Source: Candidatus Jordarchaeia archaeon (lineage in GTDB: Archaea; Asgardarchaeota; Jordiarchaeia; Jordiarchaeales; Jordiarchaeaceae). Taken from it: a stretch of DNA of 14,114 nt. The stretch lies in contig JAHQXB010000166.1 in assembly GCA_029856435.1 (NCBI GenBank), positions 1 to 14,114 of the forward strand, written 5' to 3'. A program made the position numbers and the translations under genes. Below the pieces are notes generated by a model, which did not search any database, was not told the DNA's origin, and saw only the letters and a program-made list of their open reading frames with translations. This document shows positions 5,221 through 14,114 of this stretch, piece after piece. Numbering within the stretch: the stretch's first letter is position 1; each line of letters begins with the position of its first letter.

Positions 5221-5931
5221 TTAAGTGGTGAAATCTTTTATTATGAGTTTGGGTTGATCTATAACCTTTTTAATGGCGGGTGTTAACCAGAAGATTGAGG
5301 TTCGCCAGTCAACCTCCACGTAGCCTCTCAGTTCCAGCCAGTTTAGGTGTCGGCGCAGGTCTCTAATGTCTGTGTTTAACTCTTCCATTAGGGATTGGAT
5401 TCCTTTGACCTCTCCATCATATTTGTTCATTATCTTTAAGAGATTTAATTCCTTCTGGACTGTGACCAAAAGCAGTACGCGTAGTGCATTTTCAGCGTTC
5501 TGCCCGGTTTTTGCCACAGTTGGGATAATGTGAATATCTGGGGGAATATTCAAATCCTCTCTTATCTGGGCAGCTTTTCTTGCTCCGGGCAGATCCTGTT
5601 TATTTGCTGCTACGGTTATAGGGACTCCGGGAAGGAATTCTTCTACCTCTCGCCATATTCCTTTTGCCTCTCCGTCTGAGTTCTTATCTTGGCTGTCAAC
5701 CAAAAATAAAACGCCATCAGCACCCTTAGACAAAACTTGACGGAGGATTTTAAAGTGTTTTAATCCGGGTGTCCCAAATAGGTGAATCTGTAAATTTTCA
5801 ATGTCAACTATGCCGTAATCTAGTGCCACGGTGGTATCCCTTTTGTCTATGCTGATGCTCTTGCCCTTTGTTAGGCTTCTAATAATTGTGGACTTGCCAG
5901 AATGGTAACTGCCTGTAACTAAGATTTTCAA
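5221..5931 (-). CDS. MglA/CvnD-like (COG2229-type) small GTPase with a C-terminal winged helix-turn-helix extension
   Basis: G1 GSYHSGKS, G2 TTVALDYG, G3 LFGTPG, G4 NKQD, G5 TVAK. Residues ~160-225 (IQSLMEELNTDIRDLRRHLNWLELRGYVEV..IFWLT) follow the wHTH pattern. TTG start with GTGAGG at 5944-5939. Confidence 0.88.
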   Translation of the reverse strand: MKILVTGSYHSGKSTIIRSLTKGKSISIDKRDTTVALDYGIVDIENLQIHLFGTPGLKHFKILRQVLSKGADGVLFLVDSQDKNSDGEAKGIWREVEEFLPGVPITVAANKQDLPGARKAAQIREDLNIPPDIHIIPTVAKTGQNAENALRVLLLVTVQKELNLLKIMNKYDGEVKGIQSLMEELNTDIRDLRRHLNWLELRGYVEVDWRTSIFWLTPAIKKVIDQPKLIIKDFTT

Positions 5932-6076: not shown

Positions 6077-6811
6077 TTATACGTGAATTTTGGTTTGTGC
6101 AGTTGCGTGCAAGATGTTTGCCAGTTCTTGGACTCTCTCCCTCGTTATTCTTCCGTGTATTCTGTCTGATTTTTCGCACGCCGCACCCCTTATACCCACT
6201 ACATCTGCACCCAAATCCTGTATTAGGGGGAGGCTTTCCTTTTTTATTGCGCCCGCTAAAGCGACTAGAACTTTTCTATTGTGGGCATCTTGTATAAAAC
6301 CTTCGATTTCTTCTAATGACCATAAATCAAATAAACCCGTACCATCTTTGATAGCGGTATCAACCATTGCAACATCTGCACCTGCTTCCGATGTTATCTG
6401 AGGAATTTTAAAAGGGTCTATAGCGTTTATTCTATATGCATCTGCGTATCCTGCTATAACAATTTTGAGGCTTGAATTATAGGTTTTGACGCTTCGAACA
6501 ACTTGTTTTGCCAAGTAAAGAGCTTCAGGATAAGTATTCACTCCATATAATCCTACTTTCACATAATCCGCTCCGCTTACAGCGGCTCCTAGGGCTGCTA
6601 AAGCTGCTGTGCCGGGTTTGTTGGGAAAGTCCCCGATTGTAGCGCTGACTTCCAGCTCTCTGGGAGTTATGTCTCTGATACGTCGAATTACCCAAGGAAA
6701 ATTGGCTCCCAGTGAACCTTCTAGAGGATTTTTTACATCAATAATATCAGCGCCACCCACTATAGCCTCTAGAGCTTCTTGTTCGTCTCTCGGGCTGATA
6801 AGTAACTTCAA
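6077..6811 (-). CDS. mfnB: (5-formylfuran-3-yl)methyl phosphate (4-HFC-P) synthase, methanofuran biosynthesis
   Basis: Full-length match to my recollection of MfnB/DUF556: LLISP, GGADIIDVKNPxEGSLGANFPW, GADYVKVG, AGYAD, MVDTAIKDG, ALAG, GIRGAAC. I prefer TTG 6811 as start because AGGTGA (6822-6817) lies 5 nt upstream; the track's GTG at 6820 falls inside that SD. Confidence 0.93.
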   Translation of the reverse strand: MKLLISPRDEQEALEAIVGGADIIDVKNPLEGSLGANFPWVIRRIRDITPRELEVSATIGDFPNKPGTAALAALGAAVSGADYVKVGLYGVNTYPEALYLAKQVVRSVKTYNSSLKIVIAGYADAYRINAIDPFKIPQITSEAGADVAMVDTAIKDGTGLFDLWSLEEIEGFIQDAHNRKVLVALAGAIKKESLPLIQDLGADVVGIRGAACEKSDRIHGRITRERVQELANILHATAQTKIHV

Positions 6812-6840
6812 CGGAATCACCTGTCAGGAAATTTTGATTA

Positions 6841-6961: not shown

Positions 6962-6984
6962 AGGGGAAAAAGGGCGAAAAAGTT
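6962..6984 (-). terminator. Oligo-T archaeal terminator candidate after the 807-aa gene
   Basis: AACTTTTTCGCCCTTTTTCCCC directly follows the TGA stop on the minus strand (two T5 runs). Confidence 0.4.
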
Positions 6985-9408
6985 TCAACTTATTATTCTG
7001 GGTTTTGACTTTCTTGAATAGCTTAGAATTTTATTGTATTCTTTTCCAATTATTTGTGCCATTGCTGGTGCTATGTGTCGCTCTATGTCTCCCTCCATGA
7101 GGGTGCTGGGTGTAATTCTTGGTGATAGTTTTCCCTCCCTTTGCAGATCGGCTAGCAAGTCTTTGACGAATTTAATGGCTTTATCGTAGGTTATTTGCTC
7201 AACTTCTTCTCGCTTAAAGCTGCTATATATTGTGTTCATGGATAGATAGTAGAATTTAGCTAGAGCTTCGAGATTTTCAAGCTTAATGGGGGTAACGGTT
7301 CCGTGTTCTTGGCAGTAGGTGTCGCCCAATTCTTTTGCGCATACTGGGCAAACCGTTTTTCCAACTTCGGTACGCAGGTAGAAGAGTATCATAGCTGCTG
7401 TTCTACGATTGTCGGCTTCGCTCCATTCTAATTGGGCAAGCTCAACGCCACTTAAAGCCCTCATAGCAACGTTCACTTTTTTCTCAATTAGTCCTATGGG
7501 TTCGACTTTCTCGAATCTCTCCATCCTTGCAAGTTCCTTCTTCTTTTCCTCCTTCTCCTTTGCCACATCTATGCGTTTTCTTTTTTCTTCCTGTGTTTCG
7601 AAGTAGCGATGCGTTATGTCGAAGGCGGTGGCGTAGCTTACTGGTTCAATTTTTTCTATGTTGAGAGGCTTTTCGACTACACTTAAAAATACGGGGCTGG
7701 GTGTGCTTTTCAGTTCTTTGATTGATTCATCTAGGGACTTGCTACTTATGCGCGCCCAAATGAATCCATTTATTTGGTGAGAATCAAGGTGTGGAAATAT
7801 TTCCTTTAACTCTTGTTGGCGTAGCATTATCAAATCAAAGAAAAGTTCTTCCTTCGAAGCTCTGAGACTGGGTTCGGATTCGTCTGCAAAGGCTTTGTAG
7901 ATGATTCCGAATCTTTCAAGGTCATTCTTTAGCCTCTCGTAAATTTCAACTACACGACTCAAGTGTGTGAAAGAGTCGGAAATTAGCTTGTAGTAGGCGT
8001 CATCGTTAATTTTTCGGATGAAACTTTCTATCTCACTCATAGCCAATAATTCTCTTATACTTCCTACCTTCAAATCTTTTAGTATAAGGTTAACCTTCTG
8101 TTCAATTTCGAGAAGTTCTTTTAGTTCTTCAGGAGGTGGAAGCATTATGTATTTCTTGAGTTCTCTTAGTACAAGATCATCAATAGCACTTAATTCTGAA
8201 GAAGGTTTTGTATATGTCCAAAGAGAAATTTTTCCTTCATGAACTTTGTATCCCTGACCTTTAAGGCGCGGTATGACGTTTTTTACTAGAGTGTTTCTTA
8301 TTCTAAGAAGACGTGTAATTCTTTCAATTATGTATTTGAAGTCTTCAGCACTAATGTTAGCCTCTTCCAGTTTTTTGGTTAATTTGTCGAGGGGAAGTGT
8401 AAGTGAGGAGCAGAGGGAGTACCAATCTTCGAATCCTTGTTGTTTCATACGTTGTTCAATTTCTTCTCGAGTTTCGTCTAATAGGTATGTTAGAAAGGAT
8501 TCTAGCGCTATGGGTTCGGCGGCCTTTTTAATTATTTCGCTAGTAATAGCTTTCCTGCAAATTTCGTACAAATCGGTTAAAGTTGTTTTCTTAGCGTCGT
8601 AATCGTCTAGTATCTTTAAGAGTTCTAGTTTCAACTTACATGCATCAATATAGGTTTTAAGATCTAATTCTTTTTGGGGAATATTTCTAAACATATTTTC
8701 TGTTACAATTAAGGAAGCGTGTTCTAAAACCTCAACATTGCTAGTTAGAGTTTCAAAATCAATTGTCTCTTCTAATTTTTTTCTCAATTCCTTGTGGGTT
8801 GAAATTTCTATACACTCCTCTTCGTGAGGACCCTTGATGTCTTCTTCGAGATCTATGGGTTTTGGTTTAAATCCATAGGCAAGTTTTATTTTTTCGACCC
8901 TAATTTGGGGAGTGAGGTAGTTTATGTTTCCCATAAAGTCTATGAAGTGCGTTCTTGGGTATTTTGTGTATACTTCAACCAGTATATCTTGAATTAGTTT
9001 CTGGAGTTTAGACTTAGATTCTCCCTTGAGCCTTATCTCGGCGGCTCTCAATTGAATTTCTATCTGTTTCCTAAGTAGTTCCCTTTCTTTCTGAAAGGAG
9101 TCAGCTAAGAGAGTGTTCACTTCCCCATAGAGTTCATCCCACTGCTTCTTGGCTAGCCCCTTCAGTTCTTCAGGCGCTTTAACCTCACCTGAAGTAAGGT
9201 CAACCGTGTGCACGCCGCGGTAGTGATAAATGTATGAAACAACTGCGGCCTTAACGAAATCGGAGAAGTACGCTCTTTCCCCCACTATTGAAATCAAATA
9301 TTTTTGCTCTGATTCAGATTTTAGGCGTGTTGCTAAAGCTTGTCTAATAATAAATTCTTGAGCTACTTCTCTTAAAACCATCCTTTGTGAAGTTAGCCAG
9401 TCGGACAT
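6985..9408 (-). CDS. Large mostly alpha-helical hypothetical protein (807 aa) with a C-terminal Cx2Cx8Cx2H zinc-binding motif
   Basis: Uninterrupted 2.4-kb ORF; ATG 4 nt after the upstream gene's stop; CPVCAKELGDTYCQEH at aa 687-702 (nt 7350-7303); E/K/R-rich helix at aa ~604-634. No family recognised. Confidence 0.9.
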   Translation of the reverse strand: MSDWLTSQRMVLREVAQEFIIRQALATRLKSESEQKYLISIVGERAYFSDFVKAAVVSYIYHYRGVHTVDLTSGEVKAPEELKGLAKKQWDELYGEVNTLLADSFQKERELLRKQIEIQLRAAEIRLKGESKSKLQKLIQDILVEVYTKYPRTHFIDFMGNINYLTPQIRVEKIKLAYGFKPKPIDLEEDIKGPHEEECIEISTHKELRKKLEETIDFETLTSNVEVLEHASLIVTENMFRNIPQKELDLKTYIDACKLKLELLKILDDYDAKKTTLTDLYEICRKAITSEIIKKAAEPIALESFLTYLLDETREEIEQRMKQQGFEDWYSLCSSLTLPLDKLTKKLEEANISAEDFKYIIERITRLLRIRNTLVKNVIPRLKGQGYKVHEGKISLWTYTKPSSELSAIDDLVLRELKKYIMLPPPEELKELLEIEQKVNLILKDLKVGSIRELLAMSEIESFIRKINDDAYYKLISDSFTHLSRVVEIYERLKNDLERFGIIYKAFADESEPSLRASKEELFFDLIMLRQQELKEIFPHLDSHQINGFIWARISSKSLDESIKELKSTPSPVFLSVVEKPLNIEKIEPVSYATAFDITHRYFETQEEKRKRIDVAKEKEEKKKELARMERFEKVEPIGLIEKKVNVAMRALSGVELAQLEWSEADNRRTAAMILFYLRTEVGKTVCPVCAKELGDTYCQEHGTVTPIKLENLEALAKFYYLSMNTIYSSFKREEVEQITYDKAIKFVKDLLADLQREGKLSPRITPSTLMEGDIERHIAPAMAQIIGKEYNKILSYSRKSKPRIIS

Positions 9409-9412
9409 TTCA

Positions 9413-12151
9413 TCACTCTCCCATTTGTCCGTGTGTTTTCAGCCAATTGTTTCCTATAGAAAGCCTTATTCTGCCAGGGGCGGCATAATCGTACAGAGCT
9501 AGGTACTCTAAACTGGGGTCATCCTTATTTTTGAGATATAACCTTGTGGGTCGAGGTAACAGATTACTGAAGGCTTTAAGATATGTGTATTCTATGTGGT
9601 CGAGTAGACCTTCAATAAATTTAATGGGAGGCCTAGATTGAATCTCCAAAGGCTTCATTGAGCTTAGAAATGACGTTATTTCTGTTTTAAAAAGCTTGTA
9701 GGTTTCCTTATTTAAGTTTAATAGTGTGGAATAGTTGCTAATGACCAAGTTAGTGGCCGCAATTAGTTGTTCGCGCTTAGTGATTTCTTGGTTATACTCA
9801 TTCATCTCATCTTCGAGTGATTGTAATTCTTTCAACAATTGATTATAGGCGGAGTTTAGACCTCTGATTTCTTCATTTATTTGAGTCAATTGATTTTCTA
9901 GCACTTTAACATCTCTAGCCATTTTTTCAATTTCAATTTTCAGCTTTTCGATAGAAGAGCGAATATTATCAGTTTGAATTTTCAACTCATCCTCGCTTTT
10001 GCCTCCAACAACCGCTGCTTTTAAGTCTCTTAGTCTCTGTATTTCTGTCTCTATCTTATCGATTAATATCTTCTTGGCTTCTATCTCTTGGTGGAGCCGC
10101 AGTGGCATTTCCCGTTTAACTTTTATTTCCTCCTCGATTTTTATTCTAATACTTTCTTTGGCATCTAAATCGCTTTTCACCACTTTAATTTGTTGGCCAA
10201 CGGCGTATATCCTACTTTTTACCTCCTCTACTTTGTCATTCCACTGCTGGATTTCGTACTGGATACTTTGGCTTACACTACGCAAATTGTGAAGAGGCGC
10301 ATACTCACCACTCCCCTTTTCTCTCTGTTCTCCAACGAAGTTCACGAAGCTTTTTATCAACTTGAAAGGAGTTATTTCTTTATCTCTTATCTCCTCCTTG
10401 AAACTAGAAATCCACTCTCTGGCTAAATCTCTCCACTGAGGGTAATCTTCAAATTCTTGTTCAATGTGACTTGAAAAGGCGTCGAGAAAAACATCACTTG
10501 AAAGCTTGTCCGGCCTCTTCTTTATAAATTTAGGAAGAACATCATAGCTCAGAATATAGTCAGCAAGTCCGGGAACCACTTCCGTCATTCTGTTGATTAT
10601 GTAGTCTTTAGTGTTTTTCAAAAACGCTTGTTCGTCTGGCCCCACCCTTTGTATGATATTATTGATTGCGATTTCTAGAATTTGTGATGGAGATGTTATG
10701 CTGTCTCTTTCACTAAACCTCATTGAGGCGTCAATGATATCATTTTTGATTGATTTTCTGAGATCGTCCAGCGTCCACTTCGTTGAACCAAATAGCGTAT
10801 ATTTACCTTCTATCTCGTTTTCAAGGAGGGACTTGAAAGCTTCCAAAAATTTTTTTATGAGTTCCTTTTGCATCTCGTCCTTCTTTAAATTCTCAAGAAA
10901 CTCTTGGAATGTCTGTTCAGCCAATTCCTTTTCACATTTTATTGCCAGGAAGGAGGAGAGAGCTTGATTAAAAACTTCCAGTGCCCTCTTAGAATGCGCC
11001 ATAAAGTAAGACAGATCACCTTTAAATTCCCACGCCCAGAACTCTCTAGTTTCTTCTCCGTACTCCGAAATAAGATATTCTTGAAAGGATTTGCCCAAAG
11101 AATTCATTAAAGGAAACGCGGAATCTTCGCGTAACATTTTCTCGAAACTTTCTAGGTGGCCGTCTAATTTTGATTTTATGCCACTCTGAATAAACATGTT
11201 CCCCCGCTCTTCGAACTTGCCAAGAATTCCTGAACATTCGATAAGGAATTTTTTCCCCTCTTCAAGAAGCCATTGGGGCTGCTGCGGGGCAGTGTTTTCT
11301 AATTTATCTATGAATGCGTTATATAGGGCTTCAACAACACTTTTTTCCACAACTTCTATAGTGTAGTCGTTGATTAGTGAAAGAATCTCTCTTCCCAAGG
11401 CGCCTATATCACTTATCAGGGTTTGGATAGCTGTTTTGGTAAATATAATATGTTGAAAATGTTCAAGAAGAACTTCTTCTGAGCCAGGTATATCCTGAAT
11501 ACTAACATTTTCCACAGTGGCTTTAAAACCGGCGGGCCTCAGAGAATAGTCAACTTCAAAGCTCCCAGTAACCACAGTATCTATGTCAATACCCAAATGT
11601 CTAATAAAGTCTCTTCCATATTTTTCACGATATTTCTTCTGAGTTACTTCACCATGAACACGCCTAGTGAATCTATCAACAAATTTTTCTAAAACGTTAG
11701 CTCCTTCAGACTTCATATTTAAACCGGATAAGTAGCACGCCTTCTCTATATCAGTTAATTTTCTGTTCAATTCATCAGCTAACTCAATTGAACGAATCAC
11801 ATCTACTAGACCCTTCTCTTGCTCCAAAAGAACTAGGAAGTTTGAATGCTCCTCCCATAATCCCACTGTTAAGGCTAACACTTCAGGTAGAGTACCACCC
11901 CACACCATACGTGAAAGTTCAAATTCCACCGCACGAAGCTCAACCCCGCTAGTCTCACTGATCAAGTTGTTCAATTTATGTATCAGATAGCCTATGTTTG
12001 AGGCTAACATTTTGGCTTTAGGGAGTGAAACTGTTTCCGGTCCCACAAGAGATCCAAAAGAGCCAGTTAAATTAGAGCTGTATCCGAATACTGAAACCAC
12101 AGCCTTTTTTAAGGCCTCTGCGGTGCTTGGAGCAGTTTCTCTACTCGCCAT
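9413..12151 (-). CDS. Large hypothetical protein (912 aa): alpha/beta N-terminal domain, helical core, long coiled coil (aa ~620-830) and beta-rich C-terminal tail
   Basis: Uninterrupted 2.7-kb ORF; GTGAGG SD at 12164-12159; clear 4-3 heptad spacing at aa 630-662 and 730-797; no Walker A/B or ABC signature seen. Confidence 0.9.
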   Translation of the reverse strand: MASRETAPSTAEALKKAVVSVFGYSSNLTGSFGSLVGPETVSLPKAKMLASNIGYLIHKLNNLISETSGVELRAVEFELSRMVWGGTLPEVLALTVGLWEEHSNFLVLLEQEKGLVDVIRSIELADELNRKLTDIEKACYLSGLNMKSEGANVLEKFVDRFTRRVHGEVTQKKYREKYGRDFIRHLGIDIDTVVTGSFEVDYSLRPAGFKATVENVSIQDIPGSEEVLLEHFQHIIFTKTAIQTLISDIGALGREILSLINDYTIEVVEKSVVEALYNAFIDKLENTAPQQPQWLLEEGKKFLIECSGILGKFEERGNMFIQSGIKSKLDGHLESFEKMLREDSAFPLMNSLGKSFQEYLISEYGEETREFWAWEFKGDLSYFMAHSKRALEVFNQALSSFLAIKCEKELAEQTFQEFLENLKKDEMQKELIKKFLEAFKSLLENEIEGKYTLFGSTKWTLDDLRKSIKNDIIDASMRFSERDSITSPSQILEIAINNIIQRVGPDEQAFLKNTKDYIINRMTEVVPGLADYILSYDVLPKFIKKRPDKLSSDVFLDAFSSHIEQEFEDYPQWRDLAREWISSFKEEIRDKEITPFKLIKSFVNFVGEQREKGSGEYAPLHNLRSVSQSIQYEIQQWNDKVEEVKSRIYAVGQQIKVVKSDLDAKESIRIKIEEEIKVKREMPLRLHQEIEAKKILIDKIETEIQRLRDLKAAVVGGKSEDELKIQTDNIRSSIEKLKIEIEKMARDVKVLENQLTQINEEIRGLNSAYNQLLKELQSLEDEMNEYNQEITKREQLIAATNLVISNYSTLLNLNKETYKLFKTEITSFLSSMKPLEIQSRPPIKFIEGLLDHIEYTYLKAFSNLLPRPTRLYLKNKDDPSLEYLALYDYAAPGRIRLSIGNNWLKTHGQMGE

Positions 12152-12203
12152 AGTTAACCCTCACTTTTCAGAGTTCTTTAGCTTAAAATATGTATTGGGC
12201 AAT

Positions 12204-12218
12204 TATTTAATGTTTCTT
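12204..12218 (-). promoter_or_regulatory. Putative BRE/TATA of the 912/807-aa gene pair
   Basis: AAGAAAC-A-TTAAATA on the minus strand, about 50 nt before ATG 12151. Confidence 0.35.
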
Positions 12219-12283
12219 AAAAAAACCGGCCGCAAATCCCCACCGTTAAATAATATTCCATTTGCAGGTATACTTGTTCAAAA

Positions 12284-12299
12284 CGAAAGAATCTTAAAT
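12284..12299 (+). promoter_or_regulatory. Putative BRE/TATA of the zinc-ribbon gene
   Basis: CGAAAG-AAT-CTTAAAT about 35 nt before ATG 12335; divergent from the large-gene promoter. Confidence 0.35.
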
Positions 12300-12334
12300 C
12301 TATGTTATAATCATAAACATTAGGGTGTTAAATA

Positions 12335-12724
12335 ATGGTTAAAGCATTACCAATATTGTTAAGTATTGTACTTGGTGGCCTTGGTATATTCGCAATCATA
12401 TTGGCTTTTGCCTATCCAAGTGTTCTAGCGCTAATTGTTGGAGCCATCATAATACTTATCAGTATAGTAAGCCTAGCTTGGGGCCTAAACCAGAAGGAGG
12501 ATGAAGAAACTCCTAAGGAGCCAAAACAGATTAAAGTGAAAGCCGAAGAAGCAAAAGTTCCCATAAAAATCACTAAACCCGAACCGGAAAAGTATAAACC
12601 CATTAAACCCACTAGAGCAACCGTGCTTGCACCTAACTCAATTTATTGCCCATACTGTGGTAAACAAATACCAAAAGACAGTATGTATTGCCCAAACTGC
12701 GGATCATATTTGGAAGGAGAATAA
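12335..12724 (+). CDS. Membrane-anchored zinc-ribbon protein (129 aa)
   Basis: Two hydrophobic helices (aa ~5-50), a P/E/K-rich linker, and C-terminal CPYCG-x9-CPNCG. AGGGTG SD-like sequence upstream. Confidence 0.85.
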   Translation: MVKALPILLSIVLGGLGIFAIILAFAYPSVLALIVGAIIILISIVSLAWGLNQKEDEETPKEPKQIKVKAEEAKVPIKITKPEPEKYKPIKPTRATVLAPNSIYCPYCGKQIPKDSMYCPNCGSYLEGE

Positions 12725-12911
12725 CAATTTAAAAAGGGTTCCTGATTTTTGGAATGTCGCTTCGTATATTCTCCCATTCCTCCTTGTAAACTCACCTCTT
12801 GGTGACGTAAATTTATTTGTCTCCACTTCTCTGGTGGGACTTTAAACTGCGAAATGAGCTTAATAACCCCCCTTCAGTACTTTCGAATTGTTAATTGTTT
12901 TTATATTTTTA

Positions 12912-14114
12912 TCACCTCATTTTTAACTTTTCATCAATGGTTATATTGGGGGTAGAAGCAGAACACGGTCCCAAATACGAGGATGTGGATGGTGCGCTGG
13001 GCCTCTGGAGGCGTTCTCCCCCCACTACTTTGATATGCTGAGGAGGAGGGTGAGAAAGTTCTACAATATGATTCCCACAAAGAACACCCGCCGCCCAAAA
13101 GTTGTCCCTGTTTGACATAGTACGGCAGCGGAACCACCTCCCATCCCGACAGGATGGCTCTACGCCGAACCGGGAGTTGAAGGCAACAACCACACACACC
13201 ACTCCCCGCCCGGAGTCCCTTGTCCGCAATCAGAAATGTGAGTTCGCCATACCTGCGGCAGATGATCAGCCAGACCTCATGCTCGCAGCGTCCCCCAGAC
13301 TCATCGCAGCGCATAGTATACTTGAATCTGCCTTCACCCCCCTCAAGGGTTGAAGGTTGTTCTCCTCAACCAGCCTTTTTACGGGCTCATTCACTGGCCC
13401 CAGATTATGAATCTTATCCCCCCGCGGTCAAGCTCCTTCACCAGGTTTGTGTCGTAGAAGCCTCCGTCCAGCACCAATAGGCCTATTTTTACCAGGCGTT
13501 GGGCTTGTTCTACCAGTTTTAGGACGATTTCCGCCACCTTGTCCCCCCTTTTTCTACCACTTCTCCCAGATTGTAGAGGTATCCATCCTCGCAGATGTAG
13601 GCAGTTACAAACCTAAAAGAAGCGCTGGTGCCAATACTGGGTGATGCAGATTTATTCGGTTCCATCTCTCTAATAAGGCTCCAAATCGTGAAAGAAGCCC
13701 TATAAACACCCCTTTTTGAGACGAAACCGAACAATTCTACATCACCCCAATACTGTTCGAAAGATGTTTTTAGCCGTTTTTACTTAAGGGAAAATTATGT
13801 GCTCTGTGGCTGTTTTTGGCGAGAAAAACGAGTTAAAGTGCGCAAACAAGCCTCCAGATAAGCCCATTCCGCTCCCTCAACCCAATTTTTCGAACACTAT
13901 TGGCGTTAGTGCCCTCCCTCCTCTCGGTGATTACATGTTCTGACTGAGAACCTCCATAGTAGGGCTCATCACGCAGTCGATGGCCAGTAGTGTTTTCCTC
14001 TGCTTCATCTCTCCTCTGAATCGGGTGTTGTTTGAGGCTCTGGTACAGTACTCGTTCACCGCGGCTTAGATCTGTTCCATGTCTGGTGGTTTGAGTTTCT
14101 CCAGTACGGCGTCT
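12912..14114 (-). pseudogene. ISH3-like DDE transposase pseudogene
   Basis: Stitching minus-strand frames gives LLAID (D 13978-13976) / DEPYYGG..REGTNA / SFRFVTAYICEDG / LLVLDGGFYD (D 13468-13466) / FNSRFGVE (E 13160-13158)..RCRTMSN / RRVFFVGIIL*NFL. This follows the ISH3 pattern AID..PYYG, GT..F.YATAY, LDRGFY, RWGIE, LYN as I recall it. In-frame stops at 14068-14066 and 13063-13061, several frameshifts, and a 271-bp insertion. Confidence 0.82.
13632..13902. mobile_element. Composite MITE-like insertion (271 bp) inside the transposase
   Basis: Flanked by 10-bp imperfect direct repeats GCGCTGGTGC (13622-13631) and GCGTTAGTGC (13903-13912). Ends are CAATAC...CTATTG. Removing the insertion plus one repeat copy restores the frame EGTNASFRFVTAYIC. 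Two internal units: 13632-13747 (30-bp IR, 25/30) and 13748-13902 (18-bp TIR, 16/18). Confidence 0.78.

Follow-up and report, generated by a model that had tools for sequence, protein, structure and literature searches.

We describe a pair of adjacent genes, here called A1 and A2, in a 14,114-nt stretch of DNA (the window) from a Candidatus Jordarchaeia archaeon (assembly GCA_029856435.1, contig JAHQXB010000166.1). The pair proved to be ancient, vertically inherited, tightly linked and confined to three Asgard classes, the Jordarchaeia, Lokiarchaeia and Thorarchaeia, in which it is a near-universal and usually single-copy module. As judged by sequence, profile and structural-model searches, A1 and A2 belong to no known family and match no solved fold. 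We favour a reading, to which we give about an even chance, in which A1 and A2 would be the core subunits of an undescribed cytoplasmic scaffold or adaptor complex that is vertically inherited and restricted to these three classes.

The A1-A2 gene pair and its distribution

The two genes and their flanks are laid out in the window as follows, the terminator and the intergenic elements being read from sequence only.

9413..12151, reverse strand: A1 gene (P0001), 912 aa; open reading frame and translation
6985..9408, reverse strand: A2 gene (P0002), 807 aa; open reading frame and translation; all-helical in the AlphaFold2 (AF2) model
9409..9415, reverse strand: junction, the A1 stop codon TGA and a 4-nt spacer before the A2 ATG; reads GAG TGA tgaa ATG
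6967..6981, reverse strand: candidate archaeal terminator, two T5 runs (6977-6981, 6967-6971) 3' of the A2 stop
12152..12334, no strand assigned: divergent intergenic region 5' of A1, with TATA-like AT-rich strings (12183-12190, 12201-12210) and the purine-rich stretch GTGAGGG preceding the A1 ATG

The initial annotation of the window had described genes of 912 and 807 aa lying 4 nt apart, with products rich in E, K, L and I and free of transmembrane segments and nucleotide-binding motifs. Both open reading frames are present, the junction was read directly, and the description of the proteins was upheld by composition, hydropathy and a motif check. A1 consists of 11.2 % E, 8.6 % K, 11.4 % L and 8.3 % I, and A2 of 11.9 % E, 10.2 % K, 11.8 % L and 9.0 % I. 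The isoelectric points are 5.3 for A1 and 6.2 for A2, and the mass of A2 is ~94 kDa. No transmembrane segment was found in either protein, the highest 19-residue Kyte-Doolittle mean (KD19) being 1.24 in A1 and 1.03 in A2. The single Walker-A-like string, AAVVGGKS (A1 residues 712-719), was rejected as a chance occurrence; it lies at the apex of a coiled coil and is present in 1 of 45 family members. A1 and A2 are evidently genuine genes, since full-length homologues down to ~20 % identity were found in >200 genomes. The gene downstream of the pair, mfnB, which encodes 4-(hydroxymethyl)-2-furancarboxaldehyde-phosphate (4-HFC-P) synthase, has an AT-rich upstream region of its own, and a two-gene A1-A2 unit with a candidate promoter and terminator is plausible.

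Profile searches were performed over 400 Asgard genomes, with an A1 profile of 45 sequences. Homologues of A1 were detected in 237/400 genomes and homologues of A2 in 227/400. By family, as genomes matched/genomes searched, the matches were distributed as follows.

Family f1: A1 4/5, A2 4/5
Family f2 (Jordarchaeia): A1 5/5, A2 5/5
Family f17 (Lokiarchaeia): A1 2/2, A2 2/2
Family f18 (Lokiarchaeia): A1 1/1, A2 1/1
Family f19 (Lokiarchaeia): A1 14/14, A2 14/14
Family f20 (Lokiarchaeia): A1 122/135, A2 121/135
Family f21 (Lokiarchaeia): A1 4/4, A2 2/4
Family f30: A1 1/1, A2 1/1
Families f31-33: A1 78/89, A2 76/89
All remaining families: A2 none; A1 five marginal matches, E above 1e-4

Exact-sequence look-up identified f18 as Lokiarchaeota CR_4 and f31 as Thorarchaeota, and showed that f19 includes Lokiarchaeum ossiferum (NEF87_002841) and Promethearchaeum syntrophicum MK-D1 (DSAG12_00802). 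The pair members in L. ossiferum, P. syntrophicum and metagenome-assembled genomes of Thorarchaeota are always annotated as hypothetical proteins, and a search of the published literature by locus tags and keywords found no description of them. The closest homologues come from metagenome-assembled genomes of Candidatus Jordarchaeia ("Freyarchaeota"), where they carry neighbouring locus tags on the same contigs. No credible match was found in Heimdallarchaeaceae (f8), in which A2 matched 0/31 genomes and A1 gave one marginal match at E 5.9e-4, nor in Atabeyarchaeum (f4) or Baldrarchaeia (f5), and Helarchaeota (f16) gave 0/2. The A2 profile returned only 68 matches among 1.84 billion representative proteins, the longest of 823 aa, and the relatives whose source was looked up were Asgard every time. 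A1 and A2 share one phyletic profile, that of the Jordarchaeia, Lokiarchaeia and Thorarchaeia. Independent distributions, which the initial annotation had named as a refuting outcome, are excluded by these matching profiles.

Linkage was examined at 40 loci from 38 genomes across the classes, which together with the window makes 39 genomes. In 37 of these, A1 directly precedes A2 in the same orientation, and the spacer between them measures -44 to +73 nt and usually falls between -19 and +5. Whether the two genes always adjoin had been raised as a question with the initial annotation; they do in these 37 genomes and do not in G127 and G128. Maximum-likelihood trees of A1 and A2 were congruent, separating Lokiarchaeia from a group of Jordarchaeia and Thorarchaeia, with each class monophyletic at 99-100 in the Shimodaira-Hasegawa-like approximate likelihood ratio test (SH-aLRT). 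The congruence fits vertical inheritance and co-divergence of the two genes. In the Lokiarchaeial genome G237 (L086, G237:C50:68000-84000), two complete tandem units were observed, each consisting of A1, A2 and a small membrane protein gene, and their A2 proteins are of two subtypes, one of 735 aa and the other of 799 aa. The proposal that A1 and A2 form a two-gene unit is thus borne out by a common phyletic profile, adjacency, congruent trees and joint duplication.

Two further relationships between the genes were considered and rejected. An apparent A1-A2 fusion in G384 (a 1684-aa frame; C18, L085:4415-4423) resolved into two in-frame genes split by a TGA; a ribosome-binding string, GGAGGT, lies inside the 3' end of A1 in this genome. 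Paralogy of A1 and A2 was given a probability of 0.3 % by hhalign.

Predicted architecture and searches for relatives

AF2 monomer models of A1 and A2 were built from 13-sequence alignments, and conservation profiles were derived from alignments of 42-45 sequences. Model confidence is given as the predicted local distance difference test (pLDDT). The following segments were delineated, all on the reverse strand of the window.

11582..12151, reverse strand: A1 N-terminal alpha/beta domain, aa 1-190; from the conservation profile and N-domain alignment; most conserved part of A1; AF2 pLDDT <50
10307..11359, reverse strand: A1 helical body, aa 265-615; AF2 pLDDT mostly 70-91, helices throughout
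9659..10300, reverse strand: A1 antiparallel coiled-coil hairpin, helices 618-709 and 720-831; length differs between lineages
9416..9634, reverse strand: A1 C-terminal strand-rich domain, aa 840-912; conserved motif LPRPxR...IGxN; AF2 strands 869-874, 882-891 and 894-901, low pLDDT
7369..7968, reverse strand: A2 most conserved core, aa 481-680; invariant R485, E488, E533, R553, L582, W662 and D666
7510..7635, reverse strand: A2 long E/K/R-rich charged helix, aa 592-633; from the translation; AF2 helix
7303..7350, reverse strand: A2 zinc knuckle CPxC-x8-CxxH (C687, C690, C699, H702); four Cys/His ligands conserved; metal binding predicted

The A1 model has a pLDDT of 67, with residues 1-264 and 861-912 at low confidence. 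Within the N-domain the predicted elements, at pLDDT <50, are a helix at 43-68, strands at 75-82, 89-98 and 101-108, and helices at 114-141 and 146-185. A Pfam scan of this domain in 39 members gave zero matches. Conservation in A1 peaks at residues 1-280, 521-580 and 861-900. In the coiled coil, alignment columns carry gaps in up to 72 % of rows, and Lokiarchaeial A1 is ~768 aa long; the apex is a turn of ~10 residues (710-719) whose columns are poorly conserved and mostly gaps. Because its length is variable and its tip unconserved, the coiled coil looks like a spacer or arm rather than a specific binding site.

The A2 model has a pLDDT of 69.8 and a predicted template modelling score (pTM) of 0.61, and comprises 31 helices plus, where the zinc knuckle lies, a small strand element. 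The initial annotation had called both proteins mostly helical, which holds in the AF2 models for A2, helical throughout, and for most of A1, but not for the N- and C-terminal parts of A1, which contain strands. Conservation is greater in A2 than in A1 and peaks at residues 1-120, 141-220, 481-680 and 761-800. Twelve positions are invariant across 45 sequences of ~20-25 % identity, and nine of these are charged (E14, E96, D157, E201, R485, E488, E533, R553 and D666). The zinc knuckle ligands are kept in Jordarchaeia, Thorarchaeia and Lokiarchaeial f17, f18 and f19 (5/6 f19 loci). A 28-residue stretch that includes the knuckle is missing from all ten Lokiarchaeial f20 loci and from L037, so that the knuckle is dispensable. 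An amphipathic C-terminal membrane helix was considered for A2 and is not claimed, the hydrophobic moment being only moderate (0.4-0.5).

Single sequences and 42-45-member profiles of A1 and A2 reached the cut-off of no curated family in Pfam, NCBIfam or PADLOC. Sequence searches of the PDB with single sequences and 42-sequence profiles, and Pfam scans of all members, gave coiled-coil noise only; the precomputed PF24161 label on A1 homologues denotes CCDC39, a coiled-coil family. Foldseek searches of the PDB and VIA-align with both models returned nothing but generic helical or antiparallel coiled-coil matches, the best Foldseek match having an E value of 0.028 and a template modelling (TM) score of 0.07. 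The ESM Atlas gave no usable match for either protein. Fold searches of both models found no CATCHR, DENN, Mon1-Ccz1 or convincing cullin match. The initial annotation had been unable to assign a family, and the sequence, profile and fold searches led to the same result.

Small membrane proteins and other neighbours

In Lokiarchaeia, a third gene almost always accompanies the pair and encodes a small membrane protein of two helices and 83-148 aa, which is homologous across f17, f19 and f20 and has no Pfam family. In f19 and f20 the protein has a charged C-terminal tail and an LRxxGxNG loop motif. The gene was found 18-190 bp downstream of the pair on the same strand in 17 of the 19 sampled Lokiarchaeial loci; in the other two, it lies 1.4 kb downstream (L036) or on another contig (L033, CR_4). 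By comparison of coordinates, 20 of the first 21 listed genomes have it no more than ~0.5 kb past the end of A2. In f17, in which A2 is relocated, the small gene follows A1, and in G237 each tandem pair has its own copy. A profile of this protein at E <= 1e-6 matched Lokiarchaeial families only, usually in single copy. The counts by family, and three example genes, are as follows.

Small membrane protein: f17 2/2, f18 1/1, f19 12/14, f20 117/135, f21 3/4
Example genes: L025:7341-7616 (-); G142:C1:277131-277379; G137:C1:3345830-3346072

A different small membrane protein is encoded next to A1 in the window.

12335..12724, forward strand: possible accessory gene, 129 aa, divergent from A1 by 183 bp; N-terminal two-helix membrane hairpin, K/E/P-rich linker and C-terminal zinc ribbon

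The 129-aa protein matches Pfam Zn_Ribbon_1 at 9e-9 and has a KD19 maximum of 3.06, and its gene adjoins A1 in each of the five genomes of the window's genus that carry the pair (G000, G117-G120). Its position makes a link to A1-A2 possible. A BLAST comparison of the small membrane proteins of Jordarchaeia and Lokiarchaeia gave no significant match (E 0.19). The G+C content is 0.47-0.50 at window positions 12500-14000, compared to ~0.39 elsewhere in the window.

Beyond the pair, gene neighbourhoods are conserved within classes only. In Thorarchaeia, a gene of the metallo-beta-lactamase fold lies upstream of the pair and two DHDPS-Fae fusion genes lie downstream; these tandem fusions of ~491 aa were seen at L040:5001-6476 (-) and at 13 other Thorarchaeota loci. 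In the window, the 4-HFC-P synthase gene (MfnB) downstream of the pair occupies 6077-6820 (-). Both DHDPS-Fae and MfnB are connected with methanofuran or tetrahydromethanopterin one-carbon chemistry, and may be a remnant of an old synteny.

In Jordarchaeial family f2, A2 is followed directly, on its own strand, by a gene for a 398-aa HEAT-repeat protein (L022:12526-13722 (+), L023, L024). The protein matches PF13646 at 2e-26, with Cnd1-, PDS5- and Adaptin_N-like matches, and its gene is followed by one for a 116-aa protein with a zinc ribbon and a winged helix. In CR_4 (f18), a helical-repeat open reading frame begins 3 nt after A2. In Lokiarchaeial f19 and f20, a conserved protein of ~240 aa is encoded convergently, two genes downstream of A2 (L025:6606-7328 (+) and 14 other loci); its only match is a weak one to PD-(D/E)XK (E 0.0019). 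The window also encodes a small Arf/Ras-like GTPase of 236 aa with a C-terminal extension (5221-5931 (-)), which has full-length orthologues of 40-52 % identity in Jordarchaeial f2 and Lokiarchaeial f17, where they are not beside the pair.

A putative scaffold complex and its alternatives

In the favoured reading, the tight gene spacing would lead to roughly equimolar synthesis of A1 and A2, which would assemble into a stoichiometric complex. We infer such a complex because of the translational coupling, the identical distribution and the joint duplication of the two genes. The N- and C-domains of A1 together with A2 would form the working core, with the coiled coil as a spacer or arm, and the assembly would serve a structural role, as scaffold or adaptor, without being an NTPase. 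The Lokiarchaeial complex is probably tethered to the membrane through the small two-helix protein whose gene directly follows the pair. In the window's genus, the 129-aa membrane and zinc-ribbon protein may take the tethering part.

Several observations weigh against a scaffold complex of this kind. In G127 and G128 (f17), A1 and A2 are on different contigs and both are intact, so that adjacency is not obligatory. The N- and C-domains of A1, which would be part of the working core, were modelled at pLDDT <50 and their folds are unreliable. The invariant charged residues of A2 could mark a catalytic site instead of an interface. No small membrane gene was found beside the pair in Thorarchaeia or Jordarchaeial f2, in which metabolic genes or the HEAT-repeat gene adjoin it, and the conserved neighbourhood can be retained synteny.

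The pair might instead be a regulator of, or platform for, small GTPases, with an Arf- or Rag-like GTPase docking on the N-domain of A1, which would have a divergent longin-like fold. We consider this unlikely. In its favour, the A1 N-domain is predicted to run from a helix, which two possible strands may precede, through three strands to two further helices, and this agrees with the longin order. A divergent Roadblock/LC7 gene lies 218-622 bp upstream of A1 in eight Lokiarchaeial loci (f18, f20) and ~6 kb upstream in Jordarchaeial f2, and small GTPase genes occur downstream, at 1 kb from the pair in the window's genus and at 11 bp from A2 in f17. However, no longin, roadblock, DENN or GEF/GAP (guanine nucleotide exchange factor/GTPase-activating protein) family match was found in 39-45 members, and hhalign rated the similarity of the A1 N-domain to local alignments of Roadblock and Longin at a probability of 0.1-0.2 %, against weak references. 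The all-helical A2 argues against longin-longin pairing and is at odds with a Mon1-Ccz1-type heterodimer. In G114, G127 and G128, the orthologue of the window GTPase is found away from the pair. GTPase neighbours are confined to the window's Jordarchaeial genus (g1) and f17, the f17 gene being another paralogue, and are not orthologous across lineages. No Roadblock or GTPase neighbour was found in 15 Thorarchaeial loci. Roadblock matches number 13-18 per genome searched, and matches to the window GTPase at least 13-15 in G000, G117, G127 and G128 and six in G114; with so many such genes per genome, the adjacency is likely due to chance. We regard the GTPase and Roadblock neighbourhood as a weak hint only. 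Mon1-Ccz1, FLCN-FNIP and C9orf72-SMCR8 resemble the pair in having two large co-encoded subunits, in the possible longin-like order at the A1 N-terminus and in the occasional Roadblock or GTPase neighbours. They differ in showing no sequence or profile similarity to A1 and A2, in that A2 lacks an alpha/beta domain, and in the unconserved GTPase neighbourhood of the pair.

It is likewise unlikely that A2, or A1 and A2 together, are an enzyme of a new all-helical class with A1 as a regulatory or targeting subunit. The 12 invariant positions of A2, nine of them acidic or basic, and the stronger conservation of A2 compared to A1 would suit a catalytic subunit. Against this, the searches found neither a known catalytic motif nor one for a cofactor or nucleotide, nor any matching family or fold, and a conserved interface would be just as likely to hold charged residues that never vary.

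A third possibility, which we rate as decidedly unlikely, is that A1 and A2 act in the same process without forming a stable complex, either co-regulated or in sequence. The intact but separated genes of G127 and G128 would agree with this, as would the lack of any natural fusion, the longest A2-family match among the 1.84 billion representatives being hardly longer than A2 itself. In contrast, the stop/start overlap or near-touch of the genes in most lineages, their same phyletic profiles and their joint duplication are typical of subunits made in a fixed ratio.

The coiled coil of A1 raises the question of a relationship to SMC proteins. A1 could be a degenerate SMC/Rad50-like arm protein, and the pair could have chromosomes or nucleic acids as its target, bound through the zinc knuckle of A2; we judge this very unlikely. 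In A1, a long intramolecular antiparallel coiled coil connects globular ends, an architecture to which SMC, Rad50 and MukB come nearest; in addition, A2 is followed in Jordarchaeial f2 by the HEAT-repeat gene with Cnd1- and PDS5-like matches. However, the NCBIfam SMC match covers the coil only (residues 625-838) and scores 32.5 bits against a cut-off of 729.4. A1 is without ABC ATPase head motifs, including a conserved Walker A (1/45), and without a hinge or zinc hook, its apex carrying neither a domain nor CxxC. Its arm length is not conserved, and A2 was not recognised as a kleisin or winged-helix protein in any search. Both proteins are acidic to neutral, and the zinc knuckle is missing in the largest Lokiarchaeial family.

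The proposal of the initial annotation that the pair is an unrecognised, divergent eukaryote-signature complex (a tether, a cullin-like assembly or a GEF scaffold) found no backing and is highly improbable: the best Foldseek match had a TM score of only 0.07, no tether or GEF fold match and no eukaryotic sequence relatives were found, none of the looked-up sources of the 68 A2 relatives was non-Asgard, and neither Heimdallarchaeaceae nor any other family outside Lokiarchaeia, Thorarchaeia and Jordarchaeia yielded a credible match to the pair.

A membrane-associated scaffold also invites comparison with PspA/Vipp1. PspA, a protein of ~220 aa in the ESCRT-III superfamily, works with the small membrane partners PspB and PspC. 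The analogy is architectural only, as A1 has 912 aa and unrelated globular domains, and profile searches with A1 found no PspA or ESCRT-III match.

Returning to the gene pair, what is new here is the matched phyletic profiles by class, the congruent trees, the dispensable knuckle, the variable arm and the Lokiarchaeia-wide third gene. Since no credible match was found in Heimdallarchaeaceae, the one family of the Heimdall group that was identified by name, and no eukaryotic relatives were found, the distribution argues for a lineage-specific invention and not for eukaryotic inheritance. More speculatively, and in our view doubtfully, A1 and A2, joined in Lokiarchaeia by the small two-helix membrane protein, could form a membrane-anchored machine of ~200 kDa specific to Lokiarchaeia, Thorarchaeia and Jordarchaeia, whose coiled-coil arm, projecting from the membrane's inner face, would govern membrane shape, protrusions or contacts between membrane and cytoskeleton, and which would have no counterpart in bacteria, other archaea or eukaryotes. 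The cell biology of Asgard archaea is usually read through their eukaryote-like proteins, and this pair of ~100-kDa proteins is accounted for by none of the families, fold libraries or papers searched. The membrane gene downstream of the pair in Lokiarchaeia offers a concrete hypothesis of membrane tethering, and the presence of the pair in both cultured Lokiarchaeia, P. syntrophicum MK-D1 and L. ossiferum, opens it to direct experiment.

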